From positions 24,864,001-24,928,000 of the forward strand of contig NC_087251.1 of assembly GCF_037042905.1 (NCBI RefSeq): a DNA stretch of 64,000 nt, given 5' to 3'. The position numbers and the translations under genes were made by a program. Below the pieces are notes generated by a model. That model did no database searches. It saw only the letters and a list, made by a program, of their open reading frames with translations, and was not told where the DNA came from. The DNA comes from Lytechinus pictus. Lineage: Eukaryota. This document shows positions 761-64,000 of the stretch, in pieces (position 1 is the first letter of the stretch; each line of letters opens with the position of its first letter).

Positions 761-3499
761 GTAAGAGGAACTAGAAAGTCAGAGTAGTAACGGTGCAGAC
801 ATGTCGCATGTTTGTAAACCATGATTGGATGTGATGCGATGTGTATGCATGAAGATCTACTCATTTTAAGGTTGAAAGATTTGTGGTGTTTAAATGCTTG
901 ATACGAGGGGGGGGGGGGGGGTGAAAGAGAAATAAGTGCAAAATTATTATCATGGTGGACCAAAACTGAAGAACTTGAAAATGGACTGGGTTACAAAAGT
1001 TGAGATCCAACATAATTTACACATATCATTATCAGAAATGTTTGTTAATGCCATATTAATCTCTAATGTTCTCTTTTTATTATTAAGCAGCATTAATAAT
1101 GATGTTAGGCTGATTAAGATTTATGAATGGATTTGACATTAAATTTTGTGTTTATAGTTAAATGTTTGGTGCAGTCAGCACAGTGACTATTTCATTATTT
1201 CAGCAAAGTAGCAAACGTGCATATATCCACATGATCTCAATCAAACAAGACTAGCAATAAGCTAAAACTTTCCATCTGCATTAGGGTGACAGATATTCAT
1301 AAAAAAAATTGAGTTCTGTTTTATTCATGCAAAGGGCTCAAGATGCAATCTTTCTCATAAAAGAAATTGAAGTTTGTGTAAAATGGATGAGTACTAGTAA
1401 GACAATAACTATACAAGAGGGATGTACTCTAATTGAAGAAGAAGAGTTGTGATTTTTTTTTAATGTAAAAAATGATATACATGTATGGATGATTTTCCTT
1501 TAAAAATGAAACATTACAATTAACACAGCTATAATTTTATTGCGATTCTTGGTATATTTTTCTTCAAAATATGATATGGTAGGCCTATTGATTTTTTTTC
1601 TTTGTAATTATTACAGAAATTCTTATTCTATTGTAAATTTTAGGTGCAATGATAACAGAATTCCACAAATGTATGGCTTCAGTGCCCCCCACCCCCCCAA
1701 AAAAAAGCCCTGCTTTCTGATATTTCACCAAAAAATAGTTAACCCTTGGGTAGTAAAATTATTTTATTGTTAGAGATTTACAAGTTGAAGTGAGAAAGGA
1801 CTGTTAACCCCCCCCCCAAAAAAAAATGTTATGCAGAATTGTTACCTGTAGGCCTACATGTAGTTCTATGTATACATGTACATGCTATATAAGATTATGA
1901 TGTTTGAAAATGTATCGGTACACAGTCAGAAGGTGTTAGACAAAATCAACAATTTCCTTTTCTAAGGGTGTCCAAACACTATGCAATATTGAAAGAAAGA
2001 AAATATACTGATAGCTTTACTCCAATAGCAAGGTGATGGCCAAACTATCACTTCCAAGGCACGCTGGAAGTAGATATCTTTTGGATGTTAGTTATCTTTC
2101 CAAAGTGAAGCGGAAGAAAGATAGTTTGTACATCCAGCCCACAAAGAAGTGATAGTCCATCTCGTCTCCCGGAATCAAGAGGTGATTCTTTGCTTTTATC
2201 TTAAATATAACTGAAGAATACAATATTAATAATAAAAGAATTAAATGTAAAAATTAAGGTTTCCTAATCCCTATTTAAGCATGTCTATTAAAGGTTTTGG
2301 CAAAGGATCAGTAATTTGAACTATACTAGTGTCATAGAACATTGTAATATTACAATGTAGTAGTGGTCATTGAATGCATTTCTACCTATATAGCATTTTT
2401 CTGGCACTTATGATTTAATTCAAATCTAGTGCCCTCTCTCATTATTTTTTTTATTTATATTTAAAATAGCCATTTGTGCACCAACCTAATCATATTTCAA
2501 AGCTAATGACATGATTATATCCTGAAATTTTCAGCCCATTCCCTGCTTGAGAAGGTCTTTAAAAAGAAGAATGCAGATATTCTATTTAAATGAGGTACCT
2601 GAACATATTAAATTGTGATGTAAAATCTGTAAGTTTATCCGATAAAATAAATTTCTAGTTTATATTGATATTCACAATCCACATCACAGCCATTTTGGGG
2701 CATCATACAATGTAATGGAGTAGTGGCATGCAACTTTGAGGGGGATTTACCAAAAATAAAGATAGGTTTTTGAAGAAAAAAAATCAATGGAGTCAATGCA
2801 GATAGATGCTTGTTGCTTGTGTATTGTGGAAACTGCCTTTAAATAACTCTATGTTAGCGAGGTAATTGTGATGTCTTCTTTTGCATTCATTCAAAATCAT
2901 TCATAGTGCGTGATTATGACTATGTTAGCAGAAGGGATCAGCAAAACAAAAAAGTTCAATTATTTACCATGGGCACATCCGGCCTTATTACACCAATCTA
3001 ATATCCTATCCAAATGAAATGAATTTAAACATTTTCGCAAGATACATAGCCTATAGTTAGCTTTAGATTTAGTTCCTCATCCTTAGACTTAGACCTTCTA
3101 GACCTGAAATACAATGTAGGTGTGCTGACTGCTGCACTAACACTACTAGTATATGTTAGATCTCTTGCCTAGATAGACACTCAGGTTGTGTTCAATGTCG
3201 GTTCCCAAATTTAAATGGCAACATGAATCATAATTGAAAACGTGATTACAAAACATGGATATAATGACAATGTCCTCCATTCCGCCGTAAAAGTAAACAT
3301 CTTTCAAAACACGATTCAGAGGAAAATTCAAACGTCGAAAAAGATGCATTTGTAAATGCGATCATCTCGGATTTTACAACCTTCAGCATCACAAATGCGA
3401 CATTGAACACAATTGAGTTTTGAAACGTCATGCTCTCTCAAAGAAGCCTGCACAAGCAGGTGCCAGAATTGACCTTTCTTGTCATTGGTCAAACTGCAC

Positions 3500-37500: not shown

Positions 37501-38287
37501 CTATTGTTATTATCATGCTGCAGGGGTGGATCACAATGTTAACATTGAAGCCAAATAAAAATATAAAATCTATGTTTTTTGTGTCTGAACTCGATGTCAT
37601 AAAAAGGCCTTCATCAGTATGATTAATAAGAAAAAATTCTGCTTGCCATCCTAATAAACTAATCTTCAATCAAATTGTATTATAATTTGTAAGAGTTGAA
37701 AACTCAATTTTCCAGGATTTATATTAATCAGTCTTTGATTTCAGGCATCGTTGGTGTAACAAATAATTAGAGTATGTATGGGTAAACTAAAAGTGAAGGG
37801 GGGAAAGTAGTTTGCAGAGCTAATCCACTCATCCTTGTTACATTGACTAGTTTATTATGCGGCTTATTGATTTCTTCCACTCTCACCATTGCTTTACTCC
37901 CGATGGTCGTGAGTTTCTAATTGTTTTGTTTTAGATTCTTTTGGTTCTACGGAATTCAAGTCTACTCCTTGCTCCGCCTCGTAATGTGAGGGAACACACA
38001 ACATACAGTACCAATTGAAATTCCTTGTGATCACTAACAACTTTATTGGCAGAGTAATGTACTCGCTGTGTAAGTGATTGCAAAGACTTTCAGGAGCATC
38101 TTTTTTTTTGTCATATCTGAGTGAAACAGTTGTAAAAATAACATTGACTATTGATGTATAGTAATTTGCAAAGTTTTAATATTTGTTTTACAATTTGTAA
38201 TTTGAATTATACCACTGAAACAAAGAATATTTTGATGTTTACAAAAGAAAGACATGTATATTACTAGCTGTGCATACAGAGAATACT

Positions 38288-41871: not shown

Positions 41872-43272
41872 CTGAAAGCATAAATATGTTATACATACAT
41901 GTATATGAGGAAATCTATGAAAACCAACATGCACATATTTTACAATTCATTGTATAATGGTAATGAACATCCAGTCTTAAATGCTAGGACTCTTGAAATA
42001 TCTTCCACTTATTAATCTAGCAACATGTGCTTAGGTGACTATAAAGGTAATTTCAAATGGAAATTAATGTTTAATGTATGAATATCAAAATACAGTGTGT
42101 CCCACAAAAAAGGAAACCGATTACAGGGATAGATTTCACAATTATTACACGTTTTTACTATATATTTTTGGTAAGAGTGGAATCTCGCATTTGATATGAG
42201 ACCAAAGGCTGAGCAAACCGTAATGTGTGGCAGAGTACAAACAATTAATATTCAGGCATATCAGAAACAATTTGCGCAGAAATTCAGAATGATTCTGAAT
42301 CCACTACAATTTCAGAGATAAGTGACAGCAACTAGTTTTTCTACTCAACCCGATTTCAACATTAAAATGTCATATTTGCCTTGCCCATTAATGTGTGAAG
42401 TATTTGTCTCATATTTGTTATCAAAGTATATAGAGGAATAACTGAACTTTATAATGTAAATGAAATATCATAATTTGATTGAATTTGAAGGAGAAAGACA
42501 TGGGAATCCCAGTTTACTTTTCCTGGGATGCAATTCATATTCAAGCTATTTTATTAATTGCACTTTTGTAGACAACATATTGAATGATCTAAAAAAAAAA
42601 AAAATTATTTCAGGACATATCGTCAGTGATTTTACGAACCAGCTCAAACCTTATTTTCAGTCAAATTTTCAAAATAATATATTTTTGCATACCGTATTCT
42701 GAAAGCCTGTGATACGCTCTATTGAAATTTCAGATCAATATTTGTAATATTTAAAGGATAAGAGCATATTTAAATTTCTTACTAACCGGCTCAAACCTCT
42801 CCTCTGATTTTACAAAGCAGTCTAAACCATTCTTTGTGTACTATAAAGTCTCTGGAATGGAGCGCAGAGGTAAAAAACCCAACCTAGATGTTGCACGTTC
42901 AGTATGTGGTTTGTGCCGCTAGAAAAACATGCGCATAGCATTTGAATGATTTTACCAACTGGCTCAAATCGTGCTTTGTGTCACTAAAAAACAATGCGCA
43001 TGGTACACATGATTTTACAAAGTGACTGAAACCCCCTATTTTGGGTAAAAATAATCTTTCTGAAATGCATACCAGCGCTTCATTTCAAATATTGAAAAAA
43101 ATAATGTTTTGGAGACCAGCCAAGGTTTGAGCAGGTTCGTAAAATCACTGACATGAAACACAAAATTGAAGTTGCTTTCCATCAATGTATTTTGCCTATG
43201 TAAGGGCCTATTAGCTGGTGAACAATAAAAACTTACCGTAATTGTTTTCTTCACACAACTTTGGGAGGGATC

Positions 43273-43702: not shown

Positions 43703-43832
43703 CTAAAAACAAAAAACAAAAAATAAATCAAACCTACCCCACGAGACACTCTTTATTGATAAACTTCTTGCTATAGGACTTTACTAAATGAAATCACTAC
43801 AGGTAAAGACATGGAAGCAATATTTGAAATTA

Positions 43833-46146
43833 TATACCTCTCTTTAAGAATGTCGAATAATCCGTTCCTCTGATTGGTCAAAACTGAGGTCATGTATACG
43901 ACCATGCCTTCAAAACAACAAATTAAGGTGGTAACCAAGGGCAACGGGCATAGTTCACAAGATTTCTGCCCGTTGCCCCCTGATCCGCCCCTTAACAACG
44001 GGCATGGTTAAAATTTGGTGAAATTCGCATTTGTTTACGTGCAAAAATTGCTCTGTGCGATGATTGCGGATACCATAATTTCACCGCGATTCGTGGTCGA
44101 TAAATTCAGACAGCTCGCGCGTTCGACGCGCATACGCGCTGCGCAGACGATCATTTCGCCGTAAATTATCGATTAAGCGGATCGCTAATTTGCAGACTAG
44201 TACTAGGCCCAGGTCTGTCCCTACGTTTCATCTCTTTTTGTTCTAAAAACGCATTTTTGGTGCATGATGGCAGAAGCTAATCTTCCAAGATTTGAACTCC
44301 TTGATGATGATCAATTAAAGGATTTAATGGACTCTGCGGACAGTAAGAACACTAAATGTGCAGTTAAGTATGCCTTGAAAATTTTCGAAGATTACTTGTT
44401 GCAAATCAACTCAGACCTTAGTAACGTAGACAAGCTGTCTAACTCTGAACTGGACCGCGTTTTGCAGAAGTTTTATGCTGGTGCTAGACAGAAGAACGGT
44501 TCGCTTTACAGCAAGAAATCAATGTTATCCATCAGATTTGGACTTCAACGTCATTTCCTTAGTTCGAAGAATGTAGACATTATCAAGCACGATGATTTTG
44601 CCAATTCAGCGAGAGTTTTCAAGTGTTTCTCGGCAACTCTCAAACAGAAGGGCAAGGGATTTGTGAAACACAAGCCAGCCATTTCACCTGAAGACATGGA
44701 GAAGATTCAACGTTCACTTGATTTGGATGATCCACAAGGTCTTCAAGATAAGGTATTTATTGATGTGATGTTGCATTTTTGCAACCGTGGCAGAGAGAAT
44801 TTGCGAGAAATGACAGTTGACAGTTTTGAAATTTGCGAAGAAGAAGGAAAGTGTTCCTACATTAGTTTCAAAGATACACTCACTAAAAACAATCGTGAAG
44901 ACAAACTAGAAAAAAGCCAAGGGGGAATCATTGCTCCAACAAATGGATCACGTTGTCCTGTTGCCTCATTCCTTCACTACAAAAGTAAACTGAACCCACA
45001 ATGTAAATGGTTCTGGCAAAGACCAAAACCTAAGCATGATCTTGATCCAGCTTCATTTGGTCCATGGTACTGTAATGCTCCCCTGGGGAAGAACACCATC
45101 GGAGATAAGATGAAAACGATTTCATCTCGTGCTGGAACCAAAGTCTACACCAACCATTGTTTGAGGGCTACCAGTATCAGCACCCTTCAAAATGCAGGAT
45201 TCCGAGATAGGGAGATCATGAGTGTGTCAGGTCATCGATCAGAAGGGAGTCTCAAACACTATGCTAGTACAAGCAGTGATACAAAAGAGAACATGAGCCG
45301 TGCTATCGCGACAGCTGTTGATCAAAATAAATCAGCACCAGCCGGACCTGGGCCTAGTACTAGATCTACAACAGAAATCCCGGAATCTTGTCTGACTTCT
45401 GGTGCAAAAAGTGAGAGCCAGGAACTCCGTGAATTGCAGCAAATACTGGACGACTTCACAAATAACAGAGAAGTCCTTGCACAACCAGCTCGGCCAACAT
45501 GCAATATCACAACGAATAGTCATGCTCATCTGTCAAGCCATCAAGTCCAAGCCCCAAACTTCAACATCCAAAACTGTGTTGTAAACATCTACAATAAATA
45601 ACAATCTCTCGCCTTCGGTGTATATATGTTTGAAGTTCAACAAGTTTTCATTGAAAATGTTACTGTTCGCGTGTTTGAAAAGAAAACTGGATCTTTGACT
45701 TTGTAACTTTGGTGTTAAGGAGTTCTACTTTAATAAAAGACTACATTTTGGATTGAAATTGAGTTTTAAAGTTAGTCGCCTGGATAAACTTTTCAAGGTC
45801 TACTATTGTTAAACTGTTTTCTTCTAAATATGACCCCCAACGTAAGAGTAATGAGATGACAGGATCACATGACATTGACAATGACAGGTAAGGCATTTCC
45901 TTTTTTTTTGTATAGATCTAGGCCTAATTCAAATATTATGCTTAAGATAAGTTAAACTTAATTCGGCATATAAAACATATATTGACTGCTTTAATATTCG
46001 AGGCATGGTTATTTCCATAGGCTCTCGGGTACCTACAACTTGCTATGACCCCGCGGCGCAAGCGCCTTGGGGTCATAGCAAGTTGTGAGGTCCCCTCGAG
46101 CCTATGGAAATAACCATGCCTCTCATCGCAGTCAATATATCTATAC
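43833..46146 (+). mobile_element. Full-length Crypton-like DNA transposon in a RING-gene intron, antisense to the host
   Basis: Single YR ORF, no long TIR; TATAC direct repeat at 43833..43837 and 46142..46146; CTGATTGG box near the left end; long 3' hairpin 45977..46140. Confidence 0.8.
44264..45601 (+). CDS. Crypton-type tyrosine recombinase (DUF3504/CryptonA-like), 445 aa, intronless
   Basis: Catalytic R175 (RGRE), K208 (TKN), H298-x-x-R301 (TNHCLRAT), H324 (SGHRS), Y333; family motifs SKNT, CPV, FWQRP, WY...PLGKNT; AATAAA at 45732. Confidence 0.92.
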   Translation: MMAEANLPRFELLDDDQLKDLMDSADSKNTKCAVKYALKIFEDYLLQINSDLSNVDKLSNSELDRVLQKFYAGARQKNGSLYSKKSMLSIRFGLQRHFLSSKNVDIIKHDDFANSARVFKCFSATLKQKGKGFVKHKPAISPEDMEKIQRSLDLDDPQGLQDKVFIDVMLHFCNRGRENLREMTVDSFEICEEEGKCSYISFKDTLTKNNREDKLEKSQGGIIAPTNGSRCPVASFLHYKSKLNPQCKWFWQRPKPKHDLDPASFGPWYCNAPLGKNTIGDKMKTISSRAGTKVYTNHCLRATSISTLQNAGFRDREIMSVSGHRSEGSLKHYASTSSDTKENMSRAIATAVDQNKSAPAGPGPSTRSTTEIPESCLTSGAKSESQELRELQQILDDFTNNREVLAQPARPTCNITTNSHAHLSSHQVQAPNFNIQNCVVNIYNK

Positions 46147-47108
46147 TAGAATGCCACTGGTTTTAGATGGTCGGTTATTTTTATCCACCTTAACACTGTA
46201 ATGAGTAGGTGCCTTAAATAATTCACCAATAAACCTGGTCTTCATAGTTTTGGCCATGGGCAAGTAAAAAAAAAATTGTGGATTAAGCAACGGAGCTTGC
46301 CCTTATTCAGTGAGGATCAACAAGGACAATAACATTACATATGTGTGAAATTTTTATGAATGCAAATGAATGTATTCTGGGGCGGCATTCTGAACATTGT
46401 CTCTTCTCCATATTTTATCTTTTCTCAGAGGTGTGACAAAAATCAGTATTCTGGTGGATGTCATAACTTTTGTCTAAAAATTATCATAAATTTTGTCTCC
46501 TCTGTTTAGCGTGCACCAAAAATATGCGGCTTGAAATGTGCGTAATCTTTTTATACAAGCAAAAGATATTAAAAATTTATGACAAGGGGATAGCAGTCAT
46601 AAATTTTTAAAAGTACCAAATATCCCGATACCCTGCCGACTGAATGTCAAGCATATAATATTATTTAGATTAGATTGAGGTATTAGTTTCACTCATAATC
46701 CATGACAAGTTTGAAAATTATTTATTCATGCTACAATTACATGTAGTTAGGCCCTACATATTCATTCTTCCTTTTTTATCTGTTTACATTCTTTTTATAT
46801 TTCTCTTCTAAAATCCCTCACAGCTCCATCTCTCTTTGTCATTAAGTGCATCAATATATAATACCAGCCCTGGATACAAGAATTTGAATAGATACAGCTA
46901 AACCATAGGCTACAACACAGCTGTTGTGGGAGGATAGTAAACTTTAAAATGAGTCAGTGAGTTTAGAGAAGACATTTCTTTCTCCATAATAATTGATACA
47001 GAATTTTCAGAGATGCAGATCACACTCAGAGATGATTTTTTTTTGCCTCCCCCATCCTTCTGGATAGTTTGATTCTTATCATTATTTACATTAGATGGAT
47101 TTGCTTAC

Positions 47109-49202: not shown

Positions 49203-50692
49203 CCAGGGGGGGGGGTACTCGACCACCCATGGGTTCATATCATCTCGTGTGCGAAGGAATATCAGTCATATGCACGCGACACACACGACAAGTCAAAAAG
49301 ATAGTGGGCTTTTGCCCACATAAAATATCACCAATAATCTGGTATTTCACATTCTGCTATGACACTTACCGATCATTTAGATCCTTCCGTGACTTCTCCT
49401 TGAAGTTTTTTTTTTTAAATATGTATATTTTCTTGATCTTTAGTGAAGATTTCACGGAGATAAAATTTGGTCAGCGTAGATATCAATTTTCGCCTAAGGA
49501 GGGCGCGCGATTTATATACATATCAAAGACACGACAAGGGAAAGATTAGGAACCTACACTATTTTACACGCAAATCGACGCAAGGCATTACGCGAAGTCC
49601 GTGAAGTGTCCAATCTTTTCATTGTATAGACTTTGGTATAGCGTGACGTTCGTTAATACTGCTTGTACTGCTTGTTTTCGTTCCAGGCATGTGTATTTAA
49701 AAAAAAAATTATATTAGTCATCGTTTTAAATTAATTGCAACAAAAGTGTTATCATCGCCAATAGTAATCTTGAATTATGTTTTTGAAGGTATTTTATTTA
49801 TTGGTGCCCATAATTAGTAAATTATTCATAAGAATTGCGCATTCAAATAAAATAAAATTACCGAGGAGCTGAATCAAGTTTGTGAAATTTATCAGCGCCA
49901 CCAACGGGCTTCCTTGTATTTCCGTAGAAGAGACAAACGAAGTCACTTGCTAGGCCGAGGTAAGCGAAATTTGCTCTTTTTGAATGAAATTTTTAAATAT
50001 CATATGTATAATTTTGTTATGTATTGCTACTTACCGGAAAGAGCCCCGGTGCGTAGCGAGAAGGAGTTTCGGCAAATATTCCTTCAGCAATGAAGCAATG
50101 TTTGCCGACTACTTCGAAATCTACGGTCAAACACGGTCCGGTGTACGAGGTTCGTATATATATATATACGAACCTCGTATTAGTGTGAGTGGTACTCGAC
50201 CAAAAAATTGGTAGGTATGTGCCGCGGGCGAGACAAAAAACAGGGGCTCTGGAGTGGGCTCATTATAAAAAGGAGGGTCCTCGGAACGGGCTTCGGAACT
50301 ACAAATGTTTGTGAAAACGGGGGTCCTTAATTGAGTGTGAGTGCTTATGCATCCCTAAGGAACGGGCATACGTGCATGCAGCTAGCCCGGCGGCGGGTGC
50401 GTTCGCGCAGAGACAATTGTCGAACAGCGCTCTGTGGCCGCTTTTCACCAAAACTGCAGCTCATTGTAGCGGCTCAATGCGAAGCTTTGGAGCAGATTTC
50501 TTTCTTCTTGATAAGAAAATGCTAGATTCTATGCTTTGGAGCGGCTTTCTTTGTTCTTTTTCTCAATGAGATAAAAATGCTATGCCTCGGAATGGAAATT
50601 TGAGTGTAAAAATGGGGGTCACCTCTGCGGCACATACCCACCACGTATTATTCTGAGTGCCGCCCCCCCCCCCCCCCCCCCCCGGCCCCGGG
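49203..50692. mobile_element. G-run-terminated MITE with a nested insertion of about 0.97 kb
   Basis: CTTCTTAA duplicated at 49195 and 50693; GGTACTCGACC at 49214 and 50191 brackets the nested insert; body related to 28808..29266. Confidence 0.72.
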
Positions 50693-51266: not shown

Positions 51267-51486
51267 CACTCTTAAAACAGATCAGTCAAATTGACTAGAC
51301 CAGTAGTCAGCTGGGAGCAACTGATATGGCAATCACTGATAGTCACATTTCTGACATATATTCTAGTCAGAAATAACTCTATTCTAGTAAAATATGACTA
51401 GAAAATAGTCAAATATGACTAGAATAACAGTTGCTCCCAGCTGACCCTATTAACCAGTCATTTTTGACTGATTTGTTTTTAGAGTG
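51267..51486. mobile_element. CACTA/EnSpm-like MITE
   Basis: TIRs CACTCTTAAAACAGATCAGTCAAA / TTTGACTGATTTGTTTTTAGAGTG; 2-bp TG duplication; absent from the sister arm. Confidence 0.75.
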
Positions 51487-57388: not shown

Positions 57389-59130
57389 CAGTGGCGTAAC
57401 TACGGGGGGGGGGGGGGCATTGATTGGGGGCACGTGCCCCCCCCCCCCCAATCGGCTGGCAAAAAAAAAGAACGGAGGAAAAGGAGAAAAAAGGAGAAAG
57501 AAGGGGAAACGTAGTGGGGAAGAAGAAATTATAATATTTTTTTTCGATCGTAGCTTTATGAAACATAATTTGCTTAGGGCCTATGCGTTCATCATTCCTG
57601 GTTCTTGCATTTTCTGTTTAATGAGATATTATAATCATGTTGTACTAATACATTCCTTTTCAAGTCAGTACACCAAATATTTCCTCGCACTTCGAGTTAT
57701 CGTTATTTTTGGTAGTAACGTATGCTTCTTTTACATGAATATTGAAAGTGATTGCCCCCTTTTAAAGGGATGGTCCGGGCTGAAAATATGTATATCTTAA
57801 TACATAGAATAGAATTTACTGAGCAAAATGCCGAAAATTTCATCAAAATCGGATAACAAATAATAAAGTTATTGAAGTTTAAAGTTTAGCAATATTTTGT
57901 GAAAAAAGTCGTCATGAATATTCATTAGGTGGGCTGATGATGTCACATCCCCACTTTCCGTTTTCTTATGTTATCACATAAAATGATATTTTTTCATTAA
58001 TTCATACTTGTGTGAATAATAATGATGTCTCCCTTATAATGAAATAAGTTGCAGCAATAAATATCTAATGCACTAAATCAGTTGTCAATCCAATTTTTCT
58101 AGTTCTTGGAGGAAAAAAATTTGAATAAACCTAATTTCATGTAATAAAATACAAAAGAACAAGTGGAGATGTGACATCACCAGCCCACCTAATGAATATT
58201 CATGACAACTGTTTTCACAAAATATTGCTAAATTTTAAAATTCAATAACTTTGTTATTTGCTATTCGATTTTGATGAAATTTTCGGCATTATTTTTGCTC
58301 AGTGAATTCTACTCTTATTCATTAAGCTATAAATACTTTCAGCCCGGACCATCCCTTTAAGGTCTAAATATAAAACATGTCCAGTCTGGGCTTACGTTTG
58401 CATTAGTGAATTGGTGACATATGTCTGCTCTTCATGAATTCCTAAAAACAATCCCCAAAATGTCAACTTTTCTGGTCTGAATATCCAAAGTTTTCAGCTT
58501 GCGCTCGCATGATTTGGTTAGTGATATACGTATATGATCTTAGTGAATTCTATATAAAAACAAGCCTTAGAATGCCCCTTTTCATGTGTGAATTTCAAAA
58601 ATTTTCAGCTCGCGCTTTGCGCTCGCAATATTTGATTAGTGAGATACATATCATATTCATGATTTCAATGACTAAAAAAAAGTGCTTCGTGTGTTAAGGT
58701 GTAATTCTAACAAAACCAGCAAGCGCATATTTGGCGCTCTCATTAGATGACTATGGTGAGATATGTACGCTCTTCATGAATAATACCTTAAAAAAATTGT
58801 CCTTAAAATGTCATATTTGGGCTTAATATATACAAAAATCTAAGCTCGCGCTTCGCGCTCGCATTGCTTATTTAGTGAGACAGGTACGAATCATGATTAC
58901 AAAAATTTGCTTATAATGTCCTTTTTCACGTCTGAATATGAAAAAAATTCAGTTCGCGCTTTGCGCTCGCATTATTTGATTAGTGAGATACATATCCATT
59001 TAATGGCACAATCCTTAAAATGTCTCTATTAGGTTAGTATACCTGGCAAATTTCGCGGGCCCTTTAAGTGACTCAAAATTGTTGATGGTGTCCCCCCCCC
59101 CCCAATGCCGTGACCCACGGTACGCCACTG
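57389..59130. mobile_element. hAT-like MITE
   Basis: TIR CAGTGGCGTA / TACGCCACTG; perfect 8-bp TSD ATTATGGA. Confidence 0.88.
57766..58356. mobile_element. Kolobok-like palindromic MITE nested in 57389..59130
   Basis: TTAA flanks; long TIR AGGGATGGTCCGGGCTGAAA / TTTCAGCCCGGACCATCCCT. Confidence 0.8.
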
Positions 59131-63667: not shown

Positions 63668-64000
63668 TTGTCTCACCTGCATAGCAGAGTGAGACTATAG
63701 GCGCCGCTTTTCCGACGGCGCGCCGTCGGAAAAGCGGCGCCTATAGTCTCACCAAAACTTAACCGAAGGTTAATTTTTCGAAATGACAGCATAAATTAGA
63801 AAGTATATGGATCAAGTATTACTGAACATCCTGCCTGAGTTTCAGGTCATATGACCAAGGTCAAAGGTCATTTAGGGTCAATGAACTTAGACCATGTTGG
63901 GGGAATCAACATCAAAATCTTAACCTAAGGTTAAGTTTTTGAAATGTCATCATAACTTAGAAAATATATGGACCTAGTTCATAAAACTTGGACATAAGGT
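63668..64000 (+). mobile_element. Helentron-like family copy, truncated by the window end
   Basis: Same 5' end and internal units; carries a local perfect palindrome. Confidence 0.75.

Follow-up and report, generated by a model that had tools for sequence, protein, structure and literature searches.

The right end of a transposable element in Lytechinus pictus carries a long imperfect hairpin, which is the subject of the present analysis. The element lies in a 64,000-nucleotide stretch of contig NC_087251.1 (hereafter the window; all positions count from its first letter) and is a DNA transposon of the CryptonA type as defined by Kojima and Jurka 2011 (PMC3212892). It consists, in this order, of a left repeat, a gene for a tyrosine recombinase, a right repeat, the triplet AAC, a long palindrome and a terminal pentamer that reads GTATA in most families (Table 1). 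The palindrome belongs to the transposed unit, survives the loss of the gene and is located at a fixed distance of 5 nucleotides (nt) from the point of crossover.

The gene occupies the only open reading frame (ORF) of at least 100 amino acids (aa) within the element. Its product matches the Pfam family Phage_integrase (E = 8.4e-7; 29.4 bits against a cut-off of 27.1), while DUF3504 (24.8 bits; cut-off 29.7) and QRICH1 (24.4 bits; cut-off 30.8) stay below threshold. The closest protein, with 445 aa and 99% identity, is called an “uncharacterized” sea-urchin protein in its source. Relatives that are 34–75% identical occur in echinoderms, molluscs, one horseshoe crab and one coral, many of them named KIAA1958- or ZMYM-like, and many homologues at 34–57% identity carry PF12012 or PF25561, or have the source names KIAA1958 homolog or ZMYM-like. 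The residues R194, H317, R320, H343 and Y352 are invariant in an alignment of eight sequences (A2) and represent catalytic-type R-H-R-Y residues. An earlier reading of the same DNA (the first-pass annotation) had named a eukaryotic tyrosine recombinase at this place, which is correct, and the hairpin that it described is a conserved part of the element end. Recombinases of Cryptons gave rise to the conserved animal genes KCTD1, KIAA1958, ZMYM2-4 and QRICH1. To our knowledge, no class of eukaryotic DNA transposons is nevertheless understood less well than the Cryptons. Featureless ends have been attributed to them, and we know of no recombination site or mechanism that has been defined for them.

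Each strand of the region 45977–46140 is predicted to fold as a single long hairpin (–67.7 kcal/mol for the + strand and –71.0 kcal/mol for the – strand, DNA parameters), and the minimum-energy fold consists of the same stems and loops that the first-pass annotation had listed. For 200 dinucleotide shuffles of the region the energies were –18.2 ± 2.75 kcal/mol (+) and –18.9 ± 2.91 kcal/mol (–), corresponding to z values of –18.0 and –17.9, and none of the 200 folded as well as the hairpin. Three centred palindromes of at least 90 bits are present in the window, and the hairpin is one of them. It was also placed correctly as being downstream of a polyadenylation signal, as it starts 240 nt beyond an AATAAA. 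It does not, however, end right at a terminal repeat, as had been stated: the element extends to 46145, 5 nt (CTATA) past the stem, and the only partner of the left terminal inverted repeat (TIR) is found 5' of the hairpin.

Table 1. Features of the CryptonA element and of its right-end hairpin in the window
Feature	Position	Strand	Basis or remark
Complete CryptonA-type DNA transposon, 2316 bp, without target-site duplication	43830–46145	+	Limits of copy homology, empty sites, contig ends
Left terminus TTATATACC (TIR-L)	43830–43838	+	First bases T-TAT share microhomology with the target (n-TAT); pairs with 45965–45973 in the joined-end fold
Left subterminal 8-mer GGCATGGT, candidate family-specific binding site	43901–43908	–	72 nt from the left end
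GGCATGGT again, also left subterminal	44001–44008	+	172 nt from the left end
Gene for the tyrosine recombinase, 445 codons and a stop, readable without introns	44264–45601	+	First ATG (44264) in the open frame 44207–45601
AATAAA, polyadenylation-type signal	45732–45737	+	131 nt past the stop codon; read from sequence only, use predicted
Displaced right inverted repeat GGCATATAA (TIR-R)	45965–45973	+	Complementary to the left terminus at 8 of 9 positions
AAC triplet between TIR-R and stem	45974–45976	+	
Imperfect palindrome (hairpin), 164 nt	45977–46140	+	Fold, shuffles, comparison of copies
Basal stem, 13 bp	45977–45989 with 46128–46140		Minimum-energy fold
Asymmetric internal loop, 10 x 5 nt, above the 13-bp base			Minimum-energy fold
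Stem of 25 bp	46000–46024 with 46098–46122		Minimum-energy fold
GGCATGGT in the 5' arm of the hairpin	46002–46009	+	Complement at 46113–46120 in the 3' arm
Loop of 2 x 2 nt, TC/TC	46025–46026 opposite 46096–46097		On the – strand a tandem G.A pair in C-GA-G context
Upper hairpin: short helices with single unpaired bases, then a long apical helix with GC-rich tip			Minimum-energy fold
Terminal pentamer CTATA (GTATA in most families)	46141–46145	+	Crossover point immediately 3'
First flanking bases CTAG	46146–46149	+	Target side

The limits of the element follow from comparison with its copies in the genome, an 811-Mb eukaryotic assembly. A search with the hairpin sequence gave 135 candidates; among the 50 matches listed, 4 places (the window included) are 98–100% identical and about 30 are near 76%. 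On the right, homology between the copies always ends within a few bases of the hairpin, while on the left it runs on. Four public runs were mapped to the region as contigs, which represent small shares of the runs. In these, loose ends pile up at 43829/43830, and two contig pieces stop at 46145 and 46149. A long direct repeat was not found between positions 38000 and 50000.

A second copy of the recombinase gene is 98% identical and has an open frame, and a third is 89% identical and contains six stops. In this third copy (loci L019 and L004; contig C11) the hairpin follows the gene at a distance of about 3 kb rather than the usual 0.4 kb or so, and an insertion between the two is probable. 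Derivatives without the ORF are far more numerous than autonomous copies, as the contigs from the public runs cover the terminal regions at a depth of 330–2660 compared with about 0–60 over the ORF. A 1.2-kb family of this kind is 87% identical to the copy in the window over ~300 bp at its left end and 77% identical over the last ~190 bp, hairpin included, and a 710-bp derivative that arose by internal deletion keeps the hairpin and the left end. Because both have retained the hairpin together with the left end, the hairpin is needed in cis, and not for the gene. One contig in run X4 joins 43862 to 46089, i.e. the first ~33 nt to the last ~57 nt of the element, which suggests that there are also very short derivatives, reduced to the left repeat plus the 3' hairpin arm.

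Conservation of pairing among Crypton families

A six-frame search of the genome with the recombinase yielded 94 matches, of which 30 loci with 36–100% identity were fetched, and palindromes were identified by aligning each locus to its reverse strand with blastn. In 23 of the 30 loci a centred palindrome of at least 90 bits (111–234 nt long) lies 221–1311 nt downstream of the match, compared with 5 of 30 loci that have one upstream. The upstream palindromes are six in number; two are Crypton-type hairpins that belong to a neighbouring element, and four are unrelated in design. The association extends to other organisms. Scanning of metagenome contigs with an alignment of the recombinase revealed 80 loci at 31–54% identity, and a palindrome of at least 100 nt is present downstream in 22 of the 41 loci with at least 800 nt of flank, but upstream in only 6 of the 32 with equal flank.

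The seven loci that lack a strong downstream palindrome are heterogeneous. One is the copy mentioned above, with the hairpin about 3 kb further on; another (L033) has a decayed copy of the hairpin; a third (L021) breaks off where its sister L023 continues to a hairpin, and the rest are truncated or unexplained. In the sister pair (positions 1330–3226, re-oriented) the two copies of a 478-aa recombinase gene are 99.5% identical, and homology is lost right after an A-rich run that ends ...AAGAAAAAA; a hairpin follows, 326 nt past that point, in only one of the two.

The 55 Crypton-type hairpins that were collected fall into 22 classes which are not connected by blastn. The 5' arms of class representatives share 53% pairwise identity, against 50% when shuffled, while the two arms of each hairpin are 72–94% complementary. 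Pairing is thus conserved while the stem sequence is replaced. The same trend is visible at closer range among 17 sequences of the superfamily to which the element in the window belongs: the T-A pair of TGACTGC/GCAGTCA has changed to G-C, as has the A-T pair of TTATTT/AAATAA, and the apical ~50 nt have been swapped for a different sequence that is still self-complementary. In this set 79.8% of the cells are paired, compared with 31–45% when the partner is slid; nine pairs have changed on both sides, and the covariation score was reached by none of 500 shuffles. As the 17 sequences are related, the covariation count on its own provides modest support. The longest hairpin, of 234 nt (L020, positions 3084–3317, re-oriented), owes its length to a tandem duplication of an inner palindromic unit of 89 nt, and no other representative has a base of 31 bp that is almost perfectly paired.

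Besides the pairing, several features recur. On its 5' side the stem is preceded by an A-rich run with AAC at its end, such as ...ATAAAAC, and on its 3' side it is followed by GTATA. In an automatic window of 24 nt, NAAC was found beside the 5' boundary in 15 of 22 classes. The exact sequence GTATA was scored in 9 of 22, where one is a chance match inside the stem and one true case was missed by the window; if variants are included (CTATA in the copy analysed here, GTTTA, GCTTA and TATATA), the count rises to 17 of 22. The first helix has 10–16 bp in most representatives and is followed by an internal loop that is usually larger on the 5' arm, some copies being fully paired there. The tip is GC-rich, and often reads CTCGGC-N3-4-GCCTCG.

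The two strands of the hairpin are not equivalent. On the strand of the gene, CTCGG occurs 29 times and its complement twice, and for TCGG the counts are 45 and 4. Counted by class, the CTCGG bias points toward the gene's strand in 15 classes and in the opposite direction in one; over the range CTCGG/TCGG the figures are 15–18 of 22 toward and at most one opposite. The CTCGG motifs face each other across the stem in the folds, and successive motifs on one arm are most often spaced by 19–21 nt. Of 32 internal loops of 2 x 2 nt, 24 are TC/TC, 15 of these being closed by C-G and G-C, and such loops are present in 15 of the 22 classes. On the complementary strand, TC/TC corresponds to tandem G.A pairs in C-GA-G context, the context of the most stable sheared tandem G.A pairs. 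Predicted folding energies favour this complementary strand in 17 of 22 classes, with a mean advantage of 1.9 kcal/mol. Retention of the tandem G.A motif on only one strand, in stems of unrelated sequence, is by itself a structural signature that lacks an explanation. The check proposed in the first-pass annotation, for conserved bulge positions together with stem covariation, turns out positive for the most part, namely for the pairing itself, for compensatory changes and for TC/TC on one strand; apart from TC/TC and the basal loop, the bulges vary in position.

A displaced inverted repeat and the junctions of the element

Animal Cryptons have been described as devoid of terminal repeats in the searchable Crypton papers (PMC3212892, PMC13465315). 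Our data are contrary to this description, since cognate inverted repeats of 9–34 nt link the left terminus to the sequence that flanks the hairpin on its 5' side. The contradiction concerns the description of animal Cryptons, not the classification as CryptonA. Both boundaries of six families were mapped by copy-versus-copy comparison, and repeats were searched for within the upstream 1650 nt. In five of the six, the best match to the reverse complement of the hairpin 5' flank lies exactly at the mapped left boundary, with 15/15 nt in family B, 15/16 nt in family C, 32/34 alignment columns in family D, about 24/29 columns in family E and 11/11 nt in family F, where the score is no better than for unrelated loci. 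Non-cognate best scores in this test were 21–28. Among metagenome loci, cognate repeats of 18–35 nt were seen in 7 of the 17 that are testable.

As the hairpin 5' flank is an inverted repeat of the left end, joining of the two ends extends the stem across the crossover. When the ends are joined in silico, the left terminus pairs with the hairpin 5' flank over 11–22 bp in all six families, leaving 2–5 bases of the pentamer unpaired just 5' of the crossover, with a gain of 1.2–16.5 kcal/mol. A natural junction of this type exists in the tandem L013, where the stem runs on across the junction in the predicted fold (–53.7 kcal/mol, z = –10.3).

At the right junction, the window and 13 loci show ...GCAGTC(A/C)ATATATCTATA followed by a variable base and then, in 12 of the 13 loci, by TA; on the left, the window and 11 locus junctions show flanking sequence followed by T-TATA(A/T)-ACCTCTC.... 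In two cases empty and filled sites could be compared. The 710-bp derivative (L001) is integrated in a dispersed repeat of which uninterrupted copies exist in L020 and L032. With the joint marked by a slash, the empty site reads ...TCCAAAA/ATATATCGAGG and the filled one ...TCCAAAA/TTATATACC...ATCTATA/ATATATCGAGG. A member of another family (L046) has inserted in the same dispersed repeat in the opposite orientation, the empty site being ...TTTTTGG/ATATACCGAGG and the filled one ...TTTTTTG/ATATTACATG...CTGTATA/ATATATCGAGG. In both pairs the target duplication is 0 bp, the joint maps directly 3' of the pentamer C/GTATA, and the start of the element shares a microhomology of 3–4 nt with the target (TAT, TAT(AT) or ATAT). 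A third candidate empty site (L031 compared with window positions 57390–57648) is too divergent for the joint to be placed.

The dispersed repeat has features of its own. It was localised at ~1315–1400 in L020 and ~668–760 in L032 (as stored) and has 14-nt inverted arms, GACGTCAGACCTCG ... CGAGGTCTGACGTC, around an AT-rich centre. Two Crypton families have inserted in it 6–7 nt apart on opposite strands, and its arms contain a CCTCG/CGAGG motif as found in Crypton hairpins.

Reconstructed targets are AT-rich, with n-TA in 17 of 21 and n-TAT in 14 of 21, as counted from the printed flanks. New copies are often located exactly at the right end of a resident element, as in 4 of 19 left junctions (L040 at ~1188, L027 at ~1142, L032 at ~1139 and L041 at ~1238, re-oriented) and in the tandem L013 (~1667). 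The resident may belong to the same family as the newcomer or to another one; in either case the new Crypton starts exactly where the terminal pentamer of the resident lies, and a head-to-tail stack results. A staggered overlap of 6 bp that includes the variable base after the pentamer was considered and dropped, because it predicts a target-derived base before TATAA in about half of the cases; this base is T in the window and in 11 of 11 locus junctions, while the base after the right end varies.

Comparison with known recombination sites

In most respects, the element is an ordinary Crypton. With the CryptonA elements of animals and the fungal Glomhopper (PMC3212892, PMC13465315) it has in common a single gene for a tyrosine recombinase, whose relation to domains of the DUF3504/KIAA1958/ZMYM type is probable, the lack of reverse transcriptase, long terminal repeats and target duplications, and a few shared bases at the junctions. 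Abundant derivatives that consist of the ends only are likewise on record, such as CryptonI-1N1_RPro and families in medaka (PMC3212892). It differs by its inverted repeat, the right copy of which is displaced inward by a conserved palindrome of 111–234 nt. The words “hairpin” and “palindrom” have no occurrence in the texts of PMC3212892 and PMC13465315, and the searchable literature, which does not extend to subscription journals, Repbase and Dfam entries or supplements such as Additional file 1 of PMC3212892, contains no description of a Crypton hairpin, palindrome, stem-loop or TIR. The end architecture and its implications are thus absent from that literature.

A close parallel is the attC site of integron cassettes, to which the first-pass annotation had already likened the hairpin. 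In integrons, the inverse core RYYYAAC on the 5' side of the attC hairpin pairs with GTTRRRY, which is mostly the start of the next integrated unit, and attC sites conserve structure over sequence, with unpaired features choosing the strand (PMC5027507). Judged by the same source, the similarities are these: the mobile unit has at its 3' end an imperfect hairpin whose structure is kept and whose sequence is barely so; a conserved AAC triplet at one side of the stem; features that distinguish the strands; a sequence 5' of the hairpin for which, in partial likeness to the R box, pairing with the bases that open the next integrated unit is predicted; a crossover where this outer duplex has its inner edge, beside an unpaired spacer; and integration by microhomology without target duplication, with units stacked end to end. 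In its design, the Crypton end shares the topology of an integron cassette with its attC.

Even so, the hairpin is no attC site: the recombinase groups with eukaryotic Crypton/DUF3504 proteins and is of a type other than IntI, there is no conservation of GTT, and the features left unpaired are different ones. It occurs in a eukaryotic host, in a unit that carries its own Crypton-type recombinase, and there is no attI platform. On the side of the stem opposite to AAC, the sequence is GTATA or a variant instead of GTT, with the crossover 5 nt after the G. Hairpins of the type seen in the window are 111–234 nt long, compared with 57–141 nt for attC, and have tandem TC/TC (G.A) mismatches in place of the extrahelical G and T of attC (PMC5027507). 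In attC recombination only the folded bottom strand takes part and replication resolves the junction; by analogy, the Crypton hairpin may be used in a similar way. Of the likeness drawn in the first-pass annotation, the comparison has become stronger in that the 5' flank pairs with the left terminus in joined ends and the crossover falls at the edge of a duplex, while the folded form as substrate is something that we infer.

Other systems offer partial parallels. At attP of phage CTXphi, the tyrosine recombinase XerCD uses a one-strand hairpin whose arms mimic a duplex core with an unpaired centre. It differs as a bacterial phage system with host recombinases and a single site, dif, whereas the Crypton enzyme is encoded by the element and has many AT-rich targets. 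In the IS200/IS605 group (IS608; PMC3201880) an imperfect palindrome is also located a few bases inside the end, with cleavage nearby and no target duplication. The 3' hairpin of Helitrons is similar in these respects. Both IS200/IS605 elements and Helitrons differ, though, by their HUH (Y1/Rep) nucleases and by hairpins of about 20–40 nt.

Function of the hairpin and alternative explanations

Of several possible explanations, we favour with moderate confidence that the hairpin is a cis-acting module of the CryptonA end, part of the site which is cut and rejoined by the element's own recombinase, and that it is recognised in folded form. Joining of the ends, in a circle or a tandem, would place the left terminus beside GTATA, where it may pair with the right repeat across the palindrome. 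The whole joined region could then fold into one long stem, with the crossover between the asymmetric AAC/GTATA loop and the inverted-repeat duplex. Such a stem would imitate the core site of a recombinase, having an outer duplex (right plus left repeat), a poorly paired centre and the first inner helix. The recombinase may read this form as a hairpin of one strand or as an extruded cruciform, and if a single strand is used, it is more likely the one with the tandem G.A pairs. The enzyme would cut at the edge of the outer duplex and join the end to an AT-rich target (R/nTAT) by way of the 3–4 nt of microhomology.

A number of points weigh against this proposal. Tyrosine recombinases normally act on duplex DNA, and a duplex mode of action can make use of the same inverted repeats and of the family-specific 8-mers that the stem shares with the left end. 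Folding of the site in vivo, the single-stranded, cruciform and circular forms, the strand in use and the order of events are all inferred. The conserved features have exceptions, as a strong downstream palindrome is missing in 7 of the 30 loci, the TC/TC loop is absent in 7 of 22 classes with other bulge positions varying, and neither of the terminal motifs is universal (NAAC in 15 and exact GTATA in 9 of 22 classes). In the family to which the copy in the window belongs, the repeat (TTATATACC against GGCATATAA, 8/9) is only 9 nt long and was not the top-scoring match, and end joining adds just –1.2 kcal/mol. The 21 reconstructed targets have no general tendency to form hairpins (mean z = –1.37; z below –2 in four, two of which are the same repeat). 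Finally, the joint from 46145 to 43830 that is expected for a circle was not seen in the four public runs, where internal deletions were the only joints; these contigs are uninformative on circles as well as on expression.

The alternative that fares best is a site which is used as duplex only and never folded. The palindrome would then hold a series of inverted binding sites, specific to each family, at which the recombinase or some host protein binds ordinary double-stranded DNA, so that the two ends are bent or bridged, comparable to the arm-type sites of phage integrases or the subterminal repeats of transposases. We consider this possible, if rather unlikely. Inverted repeats at or near ends are normal duplex features, and after joining of the ends in silico the surroundings of the pentamer are AT-rich and imperfectly inverted. 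Also, GGCATGGT occurs four times in the 64-kb window, in each case inside the element (two copies in the hairpin arms, two near the left end), and families D and E similarly have 8-mers common to stem and left end. Canonical tyrosine recombinases use duplex cores (PMC3212892). However, three of the six families have no 8-mer shared by stem and left end, with about 1.4 expected by chance by our own arithmetic, and binding sites do not require base-for-base complementarity over 110–230 nt in 22 unrelated classes. The CTCGG motifs are not free in their placement, as they always face each other, resulting in the 24 TC/TC loops. Furthermore, palindromes of any length between 111 and 234 nt have the right repeat directly beside their base, a position that matters only if folding brings this repeat next to the left terminus.

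It is improbable, in our view, that the hairpin is a signal for replication or strand conversion, which primes or starts synthesis on an excised circular or single-stranded copy and is incidental to the point of recombination. Stable GC-tipped hairpins beside an AT-rich base resemble single-strand origins, and the excess of derivatives over autonomous copies, apparent from the 135 hairpin candidates and from the coverage of termini and ORF, indicates that the family amplifies beyond simple cut-and-paste. Such a function would account neither for a 5' flank that is complementary to the left terminus nor for a crossover fixed 5 nt from the stem, and the one long ORF of the element does not encode a replication protein.

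A function at the level of RNA, be it as a structure in the 3' untranslated region, as a terminator or as a source of small RNAs from read-through, is more improbable still. A long, nearly perfect hairpin downstream of a gene could be diced if transcribed, and there are weak matches to microRNA models (MIR6201 with 26.3 bits, gathering score 69). Yet in Rfam no family reaches threshold for the hairpin, the two matches being far below their gathering scores, and the hairpin lies well beyond the AATAAA, is tied to the DNA terminus and the left-end repeat, and is retained by derivatives that have lost the gene. The structured non-coding RNA that the first-pass annotation had entertained as an option is unlikely on account of these derivatives and of the Rfam result.

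We see hardly any room for a non-functional origin as a nested miniature transposon, a chance palindrome or a hairpin-primed replicative palindrome of the flip/flop telomere type: unrelated palindromes do occur nearby (three of at least 90 bits in 64 kb, one of them a foldback at 51267–51486, and four in the flanks of the 30 loci), but copy homology runs through the hairpin to a common end point, and all 22 classes, those from other organisms included, have the hairpin in the same place with respect to the terminus, which rules out nesting and chance, while flip/flop is ruled out by the fixed strand bias with respect to the gene (CTCGG 29 vs 2; 15 vs 1 classes), all close copies having one orientation relative to their flanks.

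Returning to the folded end module, a further-reaching version is that animal CryptonA elements move via a folded single-stranded or cruciform site that forms only when the ends are joined, that one strand is exchanged as in attC, and that the resulting junction is resolved by replication. We regard this as doubtful, and put it forward as a tentative scheme. If true, this would be the first eukaryotic tyrosine-recombinase system with a structured DNA substrate, and it would account for the “missing” terminal repeats in animal Cryptons as well as for the ability of a conservative recombinase to amplify non-autonomous derivatives to high copy number. Irrespective of the mechanism, the design of the ends allows the boundaries of Cryptons and their many ORF-less derivatives to be annotated, supplies concrete substrates for biochemistry, and makes integron-like recombination of structured or single-stranded DNA in eukaryotes directly testable.

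Some further inverted repeats in the window are probably of other origin or have no apparent connection to the Crypton. The foldback at 51267–51486 has 220 nt, with arms that are 72% complementary (–59.6 kcal/mol, z = –12) and ends of the form CACTCTTAAAACAGA...; it is devoid of CTCGG motifs and resembles an unrelated miniature inverted-repeat element. Two perfect palindromes, with arms that are 100% complementary, are located at 63689–63752 (64 nt) and 50144–50179 (36 nt). Just to the left of the Crypton, an inverted pair of 31 nt that is 97% complementary (42622–42652 and 43122–43152, 469 nt apart) may represent the ends of another small transposon.

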